From Escherichia phage EcSzw-2: a stretch of DNA of 64,000 nt. Of the stretch, positions 52,614-53,672 are shown piece by piece; position 1 is the first letter of the stretch; each line of letters starts with the position of its first letter. The translations under genes were made by a program, and so were the position numbers. The notes beneath the pieces were generated by a model. It saw only the letters and a list, made by a program, of their open reading frames with translations, was not told the origin of the DNA and searched no databases. The stretch is taken from sequence record MH791400.1; one strand, 5' to 3'.

Positions 52614-52870
52614 ATTAAATCATCTTTGCAGTAACCTACGCAAACCTTGCTAAAGGGTTTGTAGAGTCATTTCCTATTAAGCTAATCTAGAATCATGCTA
52701 AAGAAATTCATCGGCACTCATGGGACGACATTTAGCTCCATAAGTCACTGCAAAGAGGATTACCAGACCGTTGTTTTATCTTAAGTGCTCCCATTACACC
52801 AACACGCCGTAACGTGTGAAGGAATCGAACCTTCGCCTTTTCTTTACCAGAGAAATAGATTGTTTAATAC

Positions 52871-52898
52871 TTGCTGTAAACGGTCTTCTGTAAATTTG
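52871..52898. repeat. tRNA-array spacer repeat A1 (TTGCTGTAAACGGTCTTCTG[T/C]AAATTTG)
   Basis: Near-identical to 53413-53440 (A2) and related to B1/B2. Confidence 0.6.
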
Positions 52899-52900
52899 TT

Positions 52901-52918
52901 GAGCCAGACCAAGTTTTA
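52901..52918. repeat. tRNA-array spacer repeat C1 (GAGCCAGACCAAGTTTTA)
   Basis: Related copies at 53525-53541 (C2) and 53371-53386 (C3). Confidence 0.5.
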
Positions 52919-52957
52919 AATTTTTCAAAATTAAATTGGCTTGAAATTTTAAGTAAT

Positions 52958-52977
52958 TTGCTGAATTTGGTCTTCTG
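52958..52977. repeat. tRNA-array spacer repeat B1 (TTTGCTGAATTTGGTCTTCTG)
   Basis: Near-identical to 53571-53590 (B2). Confidence 0.6.
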
Positions 52978-53038
52978 CTCCTTTAAAGAATACTCGTAAG
53001 AACTCTTTAAGGGATGGGCTAAAAAGCCCTCTCAAATT

Positions 53039-53116
53039 TGGCGGTTACGAAGGGATTCGAACCCTCATCATCTCCCGTGACAGGGGAGTATTTTAACCAG
53101 ATTAAACTACATAACC
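53039..53116 (-). tRNA. tRNA-Asp (anticodon GUC)
   Basis: Acceptor GGUUAUG/CGUAACC; anticodon stem CUCCC/GGGAG perfect, loop CUGUCAC; T-arm GAGGGUUCGAAUCCCUU. Confidence 0.8.
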
Positions 53117-53122
53117 TTTGTT

Positions 53123-53210
53123 TGGTGCGCCGTGAAGGAGTCGAACCTACCGAGTCATAATGACAAGTGATTTACAGTCACCACCGCTTCCATCTACGGG
53201 ATAACGACGC
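53123..53210 (-). tRNA. tRNA-Tyr (anticodon GUA), type II
   Basis: 88 nt; acceptor GCGUCGU/ACGGCGC; anticodon stem GGUGA/UCACU, loop CUGUAAA; long variable arm. Confidence 0.75.
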
Positions 53211-53280
53211 ATTTTATTCTATTCAGGCTAAGGACTTGCACCTTACAAATCGGTGAGCATTACGCTTCTCTCCCAAATCT

Positions 53281-53357
53281 TGGCGGTGAGTTAGGGACTC
53301 GAACCCTATACCATTCGGTTAACAGCCGACCGCACATGCCTTATGTGCTTCCTCACC
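53281..53357 (-). tRNA. tRNA-Asn (anticodon GUU)
   Basis: D-stem GCAC/GUGC perfect; anticodon loop CUGUUAA; T-arm UAGGGUUCGAGUCCCUA. Confidence 0.8.
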
Positions 53358-53370
53358 ATGTTTAGTATTG

Positions 53371-53386
53371 CCAGACCGTATCTTTT
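53371..53386. repeat. tRNA-array spacer repeat C3 (CCAGACCGTATCTTTT)
   Basis: Related to C1/C2. Confidence 0.4.
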
Positions 53387-53412
53387 CATTTTTCCTATAA
53401 AAAATTTTGAGA

Positions 53413-53440
53413 TTGCTGTAAACGGTCTTCTGCAAATTTG
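53413..53440. repeat. tRNA-array spacer repeat A2
   Basis: TTGCTGTAAACGGTCTTCTGCAAATTTG directly abutting the 3' end of the tRNA at 53439. Confidence 0.6.
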
Positions 53441-53515
53441 GAGGCGGGTGTTGGAGTCGAACCAACCGTTACCATGCTAATGAGACATGTGAGACGCCCT
53501 TTCTCTATACCCGCG
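53439..53515 (-). tRNA. tRNA-Met-like (anticodon CAU) with initiator-like 5' end CGCGGG and 1-72 mismatch
   Basis: 5' CGCGGGU resembles E. coli tRNA-fMet CGCGGGG; anticodon loop CUCAUUA; T-arm GUUGGUUCGACUCCAAC; anticodon stem lacks the three G-C pairs of true initiators. Confidence 0.6.
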
Positions 53516-53524
53516 ATTCTTAAT

Positions 53525-53541
53525 GACCAGACCAAGTTTTA
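53525..53541. repeat. tRNA-array spacer repeat C2 (GACCAGACCAAGTTTTA)
   Basis: Related to C1/C3. Confidence 0.5.
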
Positions 53542-53570
53542 TTTTCTATAAGCGAAGAAAGTTTTTTAAC

Positions 53571-53590
53571 TTGCTGAATTTGGTCTTCTG
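53571..53590. repeat. tRNA-array spacer repeat B2
   Basis: TTGCTGAATTTGGTCTTCTG followed by TCAAATTTGG abutting the 3' end of tRNA-Glu. Confidence 0.6.
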
Positions 53591-53597
53591 TCAAATT

Positions 53598-53672
53598 TGG
53601 AGTCGTAGACGGGATTCGAACCCGCGAGCAACTGATTGAAGGTCAGGTGGCTAACCATTTGCCTTCTACGAC
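53598..53672 (-). tRNA. tRNA-Glu (anticodon UUC)
   Basis: Perfect acceptor GUCGUAG/CUACGAC; anticodon stem CUGA/UCAG, loop CCUUCAA; T-arm GCGGGUUCGAAUCCCGU. Confidence 0.6.

Follow-up and report, generated by a model that had tools for sequence, protein, structure and literature searches.

What are the short motifs that recur in the spacers of a phage tRNA array? The question is raised by a 64,000-nucleotide stretch of DNA from Escherichia phage EcSzw-2 (MH791400.1), called the window below, in which the initial annotation had noted three motif families, A, B and C, among tRNA genes and had read them as possible processing signals, small hairpins, promoter-like elements or footprints of tRNA-gene duplication and decay. 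Every motif copy that it listed was found where it had been placed. Analysis of the window and its relatives revealed that the motifs are the two strands of a conserved stem, which closes each of four small units on the minus strand (U1 to U4; Table 1). We consider it likely that these units are paralogous genes for small Y-RNA-like noncoding RNAs, cut from the tRNA transcript, that act as partners of a divergent Ro60-like protein.

Four stem-closed RNA units between the tRNA genes

On the plus strand, motifs A and B share the pattern TTGCTG-N5-GGTCTTCTG, which occurs four times in the window (52871, 52958, 53413 and 53571) compared with 0.01 occurrences expected from shuffled sequences. The C motif, CCAGACC, is found at 52904, 53371 and 53527 and also at 52763, a fourth copy that the earlier list lacked. 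On the minus strand, which is the strand of the tRNAs, A and B are complementary to C and the two sets form the 5' and 3' strands of a single stem, so that the three supposed families are one structure that had been read in pieces and on the wrong strand. All four units lie within 52760-53593 and follow the common design 5'-NNNN-AGA-AGACCNN-WUWCAGCAA-(loop)-NNGGUCU-G-NNNN-3'. Each stem has an outer helix of 4 bp and an inner helix of 7 bp, the latter starting with A-G, separated by an AGA/G internal loop (3 x 1 nt), and it presents an invariant, single-stranded (W)UWCAGCAA. The loops of U1, U2 and U3 are short and AU-rich, and that of U4 contains a circularly permuted tRNA-like domain. U1 starts 4 nt past the CCA of tRNA-Glu (53598-53600) and ends 8 nt ahead of tRNA-Met, and U2 starts 3 nt past the CCA of tRNA-Met (53439-53441) and ends 10 nt ahead of tRNA-Asn; the proposal that motif copies B2 and A2 abut these two tRNAs was therefore correct.

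Covariation is seen at five base-pair positions among the four paralogues, and the minimum-energy folds given by RNAfold contain both helices in every unit. The region is matched by 328 phage records, with 100% identity over the query in Escherichia phage EcSzw_1, a member of the Felix O1 group (Ounavirinae). Three or four units occupy the same slots in all eight of the GenBank relatives examined that carry the gene for the Ro60-like protein (Felixounavirus, Suspvirus and Mooglevirus), and the five close relatives from IMG/VR, with 88-89% identity in the protein, contain four units each, compared with three in a contig with 64% identity. Alignments of orthologues from 12-13 related genomes revealed stems and a WUWCAGCAA motif that are invariant and loop interiors that drift and accumulate insertions and deletions; for U1, this pattern of invariant stems and motif and variable loop holds in 12 genomes. 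One pair of the U2 outer helix is G-C in seven genomes and A-U in five, which is a compensatory change, and in the U3 outer helix one pair, A-U in the majority of genomes, is replaced by G-C or G-U in the rest. The structure is a conserved RNA that covaries, is strand-specific and is present in four copies.

In Yersinia phage P778, whose protein is 53% identical, the tRNA spacers contain three units, one of which encloses a T arm. Their helices are wholly changed (GGACUGU/ACAGUCC, GGAUUC/GAAUCC and GGACUC/GAGUCC) and the UUACAGCAA/AUUCAGCAA motif is retained. No units were found in Erwinia phage phiEa21-4, which has a 26-tRNA array and does not have the gene at the syntenic site, and the tRNA region of phage T5 contains no CAGCAA-type unit, with no DUF2828 homologue in the 50 kb examined.

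An Rfam scan of the units at E ≤ 1 returned only tRNA matches and one chance match to Dictyostelium class I RNA at U2 (E 0.17). A small open reading frame in U2 (AGGA-N5-ATG, running into tRNA-Asn) was taken as chance, with no counterpart in U1, U3 or U4. Resemblances to the hairpin ribozyme, the k-turn and the bulge-helix-bulge (BHB) motif were dropped, as the units lack the core sequences of these motifs and have an internal loop of 3 x 1 nt.

U4 includes the 'orphan T-arm' that had been interpreted as a sign of decay. This arm is in fact part of a conserved, permuted tRNA-like domain, which is closed by a stem formed from motif copy A1 and the newly found C copy, C0. The domain consists of an anticodon-arm-like hairpin (V), the T arm, a closed acceptor-like hairpin and a D arm, and RNAalifold returned these helices identically as the consensus of 13 genomes, in which two pairs of the acceptor-like hairpin show compensatory changes. 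The 7-nt loop of the V hairpin resembles an anticodon loop (C-U-GGU-A-A), and its 'anticodon' varies in relatives (GGU, GAU, UAU and one 6-nt loop) in a unit that is otherwise nearly invariant. A circularly permuted layout of T arm, closed acceptor and D arm has been described by Chen et al. for bacterial YrlA Y RNAs (PMC4201824), and U4 displays its elements: the T arm, the closed acceptor stem-loop, U8/N9 and a D arm with GG. The domain in U4 is a circularly permuted tRNA, the ends of which are held together by the conserved stem.

The tRNA-like parts raise the question of whether the units are what is left of tRNA genes, with their trailers, after duplication or decay, an origin that the initial annotation had raised, and lack a function. 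The trailer CAAAUUUG is indeed common to many tRNAs of the array, and the T arm of U4 contributes to a match of 30.6 bits with the Rfam tRNA model (52810-52873). However, this match covers the V and T part only, with three non-standard acceptor pairs and the D arm skipped, and the parts of U4 are permuted around a closed acceptor hairpin. The units also failed to qualify as linear cloverleaf tRNAs or pseudogenes, since ARAGORN was silent on all four and U1 to U3, which contain no tRNA parts, have no Rfam tRNA match. Decay is difficult to reconcile with stems and a WUWCAGCAA motif that stay invariant across 12-13 genomes while the loops drift, with compensatory changes that preserve pairing within and between genera, or with the recurrence of the module in unrelated phages with wholly different helices. 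We therefore regard the remnant explanation as scarcely credible.

The same module beside Ro60-like genes of other phages

The gene next to the tRNA array, immediately upstream and likewise on the minus strand, had not been connected with the motifs in the initial annotation; its product is predicted to fold like Ro60. AlphaFold2 was run on a 99%-identical homologue of full length, and the resulting model (pLDDT 87, pTM 0.87) features the HEAT-repeat ring and the vWA domain with a MIDAS motif (DVSCS) by which a Ro60 protein is recognized. Its ten best Foldseek matches in the PDB are all Ro60 proteins (E 4e-9 to 1e-6, TM ~0.44-0.64), matched over their full length, and include those of Xenopus, human, Deinococcus (Rsr) and the Thermus phage phiLo. 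By sequence, the protein matches only DUF2828 and DUF7788 and not the Pfam family TROVE (PF05731), and a sequence search of the PDB was empty. Ro60-like proteins of this kind were found in 709 phage records of GenBank. According to a preprint, the homologue gp130 of phage Bas63 is Ro60-like in structure and counters the Ppl defence system; the preprint also speculates that some of the downstream 'tRNA genes' may be Y RNAs (PMC11482910). Bacterial and phage Y RNAs are encoded within 4 kb of the Ro60 gene and on the same strand (PMC4201824); U1 to U4 sit 331-1164 nt past the stop codon of the Ro60-like gene, also on the same strand.

A family-wide comparison was made with 80 IMG/VR loci fetched around homologues of the gene (38-89% identity). 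The family was screened using regular-expression and pairing scans, with shuffled sequences and the opposite strand as controls and no covariance model, because loop lengths range from 29 to 239 nt and the MAFFT alignment of the 3' strands was not trustworthy. The sequence-only anchor AG-N5-[ATG]T[ATG]-CAGCAA was scanned against a sample of 84 loci (1.27 Mb) and was found 113 times on the strand of the gene and twice on the opposite strand. A perfect partner of the 7-mer followed by G was present within 320 nt for 99 of these 113 anchors, compared with 9.2 for shuffled 7-mers, and when only Watson-Crick pairs were allowed the numbers were 96 and 0.4, respectively. The units defined in this way contain 47 distinct helices, with changes on both sides at five inner-helix positions (103 distinct cores). 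The outer 4-bp helix, which was not used for selection, is paired in 62% of cases when scored at a fixed geometry, versus 30-42% in slid controls; it is firm in Felix-like phages and variable elsewhere.

A relaxed rule (any 7-mer, NNW-CAGCAA, the complement of the 7-mer and G) was applied to 97 loci and returned 169 units on the gene strand versus three on the opposite strand. The gene lies no more than 1.5 kb from 137 of the 169 units, which are distributed over 69 of the 97 loci, and the median distance to it is 498 nt. Positions that were not imposed by the rule are conserved, namely A at helix position 1 (82%), G at helix position 2 (93%) and U before WCAGCAA (94%), and across the family the 5' strand reads WAA-AGR-N4. 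In four very distant phages, two or three tandem units directly adjoin the gene: Campylobacter phage CPX, Listeria phage AG20, Staphylococcus phage 6ec and Mycobacterium phage Faith1, whose protein carries the annotation 'Ro-like RNA binding protein'. There is no tRNA in the 11-kb stretch of Faith1 that was fetched, and the single tRNA of 6ec lies ~1.4 kb beyond its units. The same RNA module accompanies homologues of the gene in phages across bacterial phyla, including Vibrio phages.

These data also bear on the idea that the motifs function as DNA, for example as miniature inverted-repeat transposable element (MITE)-like repeats, as recombination or cassette boundaries, or as targets of homing endonucleases in the array. 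The arms of U1 to U4 do form inverted repeats around a variable insert of 42-108 nt, and HNH endonuclease genes are inserted in the region in relatives; in phages mistaenkt and DE7, however, these genes stand beside the units and never inside them. Mobile or recombining DNA would not be expected to yield arms that covary rather than share one sequence (47 different helices), a strand bias of 169 to 3 in which the units are co-oriented with the gene and the tRNAs, or fixed orthologous positions. Neither non-orthologous copies with target-site duplications nor empty and filled sites among close relatives were seen, and we judge a DNA-level role to be highly improbable.

Loop lengths across the family are bimodal, with 61 short units (29-66 nt) and 38 long units (81-239 nt), and a T-loop is present in 17 of the long units versus one of the short ones. 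Long units of four loci (L013, L089, L053 and L083) match the Rfam YrlA model with 24-41 bits; the best of these matches (40.9 bits, E 1.5e-5) is significant, although below the threshold of the family. The alignment spans the T arm, the closed acceptor and the D arm and excludes the stem. Neither the short units nor the stem module match any Rfam family.

Further observations were made at individual loci. The conserved stem of the L083 unit (10513-10620) surrounds tRNA parts in their normal order (D, anticodon and T arms; Rfam tRNA 55 bits, 10538-10608), so that the stem holds a genuine nested tRNA or the mimic can also be built in this second manner. The tRNA and Ro60-like neighbourhoods of two uncultured phages contain a full tmRNA (75 bits, L053 8605-9054) and a tmRNA-like fragment (L013 12213-12288). 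In Listeria phage AG20 (L216, 4615-10566), the DUF2828 gene is preceded by a tRNA array and three CAGCAA-type units and followed by genes for an RNA ligase, a tRNA amidotransferase and an RtcB 'tRNA splicing ligase'; the locus is an RNA-repair neighbourhood and resembles the bacterial rsr-rtcB operons in this respect.

Setting of the units in the EcSzw-2 array

The array extends over 47951-53756 on the minus strand and comprises 24 ARAGORN calls, to which Rfam adds a tRNA-Glu (matched at 53601-53672), a weak Tyr-like element and the 'tRNA' match within U4. In mistaenkt, an HNH gene takes the place of the Tyr-like element.

Table 1. Coordinates of the units, of the parts of U4 and of neighbouring features in the window
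Feature	Position	Strand	Description
U1 (B2 + C3), short	53524-53593	minus	Outer helix UGAC/GUCA; inner helix AGACCAA/UUGGUCU; loop 44 nt; reads UGAC-AGA-AGACCAA-AUUCAGCAA, 35-nt AU-rich loop remainder, UUGGUCU-G-GUCA
U2 (A2 + C2), short	53368-53435	minus	Outer helix UUGC/GCAA; inner helix AGACCGU/ACGGUCU; loop 42 nt; reads UUGC-AGA-AGACCGU-UUACAGCAA...ACGGUCU-G-GCAA
U3 (B1 + C1), short	52901-52980	minus	Outer helix GAGC/GCUC; inner helix AGACCAA/UUGGUCU; loop 54 nt; reads GAGC-AGA-AGACCAA-AUUCAGCAA...UUGGUCU-G-GCUC
U4 (A1 + new C0 at 52763-52771), long	52760-52893	minus	Outer helix UUAC/GUAA; inner helix AGACCGU/ACGGUCU; loop 108 nt; stem UUAC-AGA-AGACCGU-UUACAGCAA...ACGGUCU-G-GUAA
U4 V hairpin, anticodon-arm-like	52836-52859	minus	
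U4 T arm	52818-52834	minus	GAAGG-UUCGAUU-CCUUC; the 'orphan T-arm' of the initial annotation
U4 closed acceptor-like hairpin	52802-52817	minus	ACACGU-UACG-GCGUGU; followed by U-G
U4 D arm	52784-52800	minus	GUGU-AAUGGGA-GCAC
tRNA-Glu(UUC)	53598-53672	minus	Rfam 53.7 bits, missed by ARAGORN; U1 follows its 3' CCA
tRNA-Met(CAU)	53439-53515	minus	U1 upstream, U2 downstream
Tyr-like element	53128-53208	minus	Rfam 22.8 bits only; annotated as tRNA-Tyr or pseudo-tRNA in relatives
Sigma-70-like promoter matches	53905-53877 and 53813-53784	minus	Each 10/12 consensus matches; consensus match only
Ro60-like gene	53924-55340	minus	Pfam DUF2828 (E 5e-22) and DUF7788 (E 3e-42); vWA MIDAS motif DVSCS

The two promoter-like sites ahead of the array are candidates that could, judging from their sequence, drive a polycistron of tRNAs and units; a further sigma-70-like match is located at 52288-52260. 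Within U1 to U4, neither a sigma-70-like promoter on the minus strand (-35 and -10 hexamers with 16-18 nt spacing) nor a terminator-like GC-rich stem with a T run on the transcribed strand was found. Among the functions suggested earlier for the motifs, that of small hairpins was nearest to the structure found, and the motifs are indeed linked to tRNA 3' ends, whereas promoter-like elements are not present inside the units.

Other structured elements are present in the array. Between U4 and tRNA-Lys (52614-52759, minus strand), a stem of ~24 bp closes ~100 nt and is kept in eight genomes; ten of its pairs are altered on both sides, and phage wV8 swaps the interior and retains the stem. This is a further structured RNA that is not of the CAGCAA type. 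Two elements on the minus strand (51618-51710 and 51846-51970) each have an interior unlike that of a tRNA, combined with a canonical T arm, a stem of acceptor type and a 3' GCCA; they received no ARAGORN or Rfam call and are reminiscent of the 'tRNA-like stable RNAs' of T5. The 58 nt between tRNA-Asp and U3 (52981-53038, minus strand) contain two small hairpins (GGGCUUUUUAGCCC and CUUUAAAGAGUUCUUACGAGUAUUCUUUAAAG; z = -2.8).

A putative Y RNA system and its known counterparts

The units share with Y RNAs a bulged terminal stem that is conserved through covariation, with a variable remainder. Several observations nevertheless weigh against the interpretation of the units as Y-RNA-like partners of the Ro60-like protein. 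The gene in the window is frameshifted at approximately codon 37 by a 1-nt insertion near 55234, an extra C (GCTGCCTGG versus GCTG-CTGG in mistaenkt), and the GenBank product in this phage has 423 amino acids from a TTG start compared with 471 in relatives; the frameshift could be a sequencing error or could mark a real pseudogene. Known Ro-binding sequences (GGUCCGA; GNCGAAN0-1G or CGAA) are absent from the units, whose CAGAAG is only loosely similar to them, so the units are not members of RF02553, and U4 of the window does not match this YrlA model even at E ≤ 10. Folding-energy z-scores are modest (-0.8 to -3.4, with -3.35 for U2) and do not separate the strands, and single mismatches of the G-U and A-C type (11 versus 8) do not discriminate between them either; the minus strand was assigned from the co-orientation with the tRNAs, the Ro60-like gene and the T-loop. 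No unit was detected by the relaxed rule within 1.5 kb of the gene in 28 of the 97 loci. Finally, a reverse scan of IMG/VR with the short-unit pattern yielded 19 stem-forming matches in 17 loci, for which the stored stretches are short. Eleven of these 17 loci contain tRNA arrays (mean 5.2 tRNAs) compared with four of 103 non-stem loci, while the gene is within the short stored stretch in only two of the 17 (the contig of one further locus, L123, is known to have the gene), and the linkage to tRNA arrays in IMG/VR is thus at least as visible as that to the gene.

The reverse scan is relevant to two other explanations. One is that the units are cis-acting spacers of tRNA operons with no link to the Ro60-like protein, such as folding insulators, guide hairpins for RNase E or RNase P, or protectors of 3' ends. 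This would be consistent with the enrichment of stem-forming matches in tRNA arrays, with the tight fit of U1 and U2 (3-4 nt past a CCA and 8-10 nt before the next tRNA) and with the 35 of 136 units that lie no more than 15 nt from an upstream tRNA. However, 79 of the same 136 units have no upstream tRNA within 100 nt, the copies in Faith1 and 6ec flank the Ro60-like gene with no tRNA alongside, and the dense arrays of phiEa21-4 and T5 manage without units. A plain insulator would also have no need for an invariant single-stranded CAGCAA or for a tRNA mimic that is conserved across bacterial phyla, and we consider the spacer explanation unlikely.

The other explanation accepts the units as real structured small RNAs and gives them a different partner or none, for example as regulators or as decoys for host nucleases that target tRNAs, in the manner of the stable RNAs of the T4 and T5 tRNA clusters, in which case their proximity to the gene would reflect a shared placement in early or tRNA operons. 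It would account for the more visible tie to tRNA arrays than to the gene in the reverse search, and eight such stable RNAs are annotated in the tRNA region of T5. The tight, same-strand adjacency to the gene in otherwise unrelated phages of Actinobacteria, Firmicutes, Campylobacterota and Proteobacteria, and the YrlA layout of the long form, are not readily explained in this way, which makes such an arrangement very unlikely in our view.

A mechanism is proposed for Y-RNA-like partners of the Ro60-like protein, in which the units would be co-transcribed with the tRNAs from promoters upstream of the array and released by tRNA-processing enzymes. RNase P would cut where the following tRNA begins, and endo- or exonucleolytic trimming would act past the CCA of the preceding tRNA. 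The stem and the CAGCAA motif together are the putative binding site of the Ro60-like ring protein, and the variable module, either the tRNA mimic or the AU-rich loop, may tether the protein to other RNAs or enzymes or gate their access to it. If systems of Ro60, Y RNA and PNPase or RtcB are taken as a guide, the purpose is probably quality control of RNA (tRNA), repair, or counter-defence during infection.

With greater reserve, we are inclined to extend this proposal to a large family of Y-like RNAs that has its own recognition module and is the dedicated partner of DUF2828-type Ro60-like proteins. Such RNAs would exist in short and tRNA-mimic forms, would often be placed in tRNA operons for maturation, and would probably serve the repair of tRNA or other RNA or else counter-defence, of which the Ppl-countering phenotype of Bas63 gp130 may be an example. 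Their recognition module, as deduced from sequence, would comprise the 7-bp helix starting with A-G, the single-stranded UWCAGCAA and the G after the 3' strand. The proposed partner proteins occur in at least 709 sequenced phages, with Gram-negative, Gram-positive and actinobacterial hosts. Neither Rfam 15 nor the literature searched yielded a description of such RNAs; Chen et al. searched only TROVE-annotated genomes and discarded matches overlapping tandem tRNAs (PMC4201824). We rate the recognition module and the genomic setting of this putative Y RNA/Ro60 system as the new elements here.

Ro60/Y RNA particles are an old puzzle of RNA quality control, and their phage versions have newly come under study. 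The DUF2828 branch of Ro60-like proteins is large, divergent in sequence and common in phages, and one member has been reported to counter a bacterial defence. The literature searched identifies no RNA partner of these proteins beyond the guess of one preprint about annotated tRNAs. Candidate Y RNAs are now available with exact coordinates, a consensus and a testable putative binding module, and they are located in the 'spacers' of the array and not in annotated tRNAs. Part of the unannotated space in phage tRNA arrays is thereby accounted for, and the units provide a seed for a new covariance model with which hundreds of phage genomes could be annotated.

Among known systems, YrlA (RF02553; PMC4201824) is encoded, like the units, within a few kb of a Ro60-type gene and on the same strand, often in several copies, and its 5' and 3' ends also pair into a bulged stem. 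As in U4 and many long units, this stem closes a permuted domain with the order (V), T arm, closed acceptor hairpin and D arm. The stems themselves differ: YrlA has GNCGAAN0-1G, whereas the units have a 7-bp A-G helix, the invariant UWCAGCAA and a G after the 3' strand, and all scores obtained here are below the Rfam gathering threshold of 69 bits. The partner of YrlA is Rsr/Ro60 (TROVE), while the candidate partner here is a DUF2828/DUF7788 protein. Unlike YrlA, the units are embedded in a tRNA operon and most copies, those of the U1-U3 type, lack a tRNA-like domain. The best analogy for U1 to U3 is provided by Salmonella YrlB and by Yrl1 and Yrl2 of Thermus phage phiLo (PMC12135203), which are short stem-bulge-stem RNAs with no tRNA mimic, encoded beside a (phage) Ro60 gene. 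These RNAs differ in having a CGAA motif and demonstrated binding to canonical TROVE Ro60, in contrast to the putative binding of the units described here.

The stable RNAs of T5 (RNAI, RNAIII and the 'tRNA-like' RNA1 and RNA2) resemble the units in being small and located between tRNA genes and, as is proposed for the units, are co-transcribed with these genes and presumably matured by tRNA-processing enzymes, although no relationship to the units was found in sequence or structure. The T5 record (L218, 30284-33949 and 40848-41566) lists its eight as 'stable RNAs with unknown functions', some of them tRNA-like, and none matches a unit. Species 1 and 2 of phage T4 are likewise stable non-tRNA RNAs in a tRNA cluster. 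Metazoan Y RNAs differ from the units in the sequence of their bulged helix (GGUCCGA/UUGACU) and in being RNA polymerase III transcripts, in contrast to the processing from a polycistron that is proposed here. Their overall organization is the one proposed for the units, with a conserved, bulged terminal stem that binds the protein and a variable loop that serves as the effector module.

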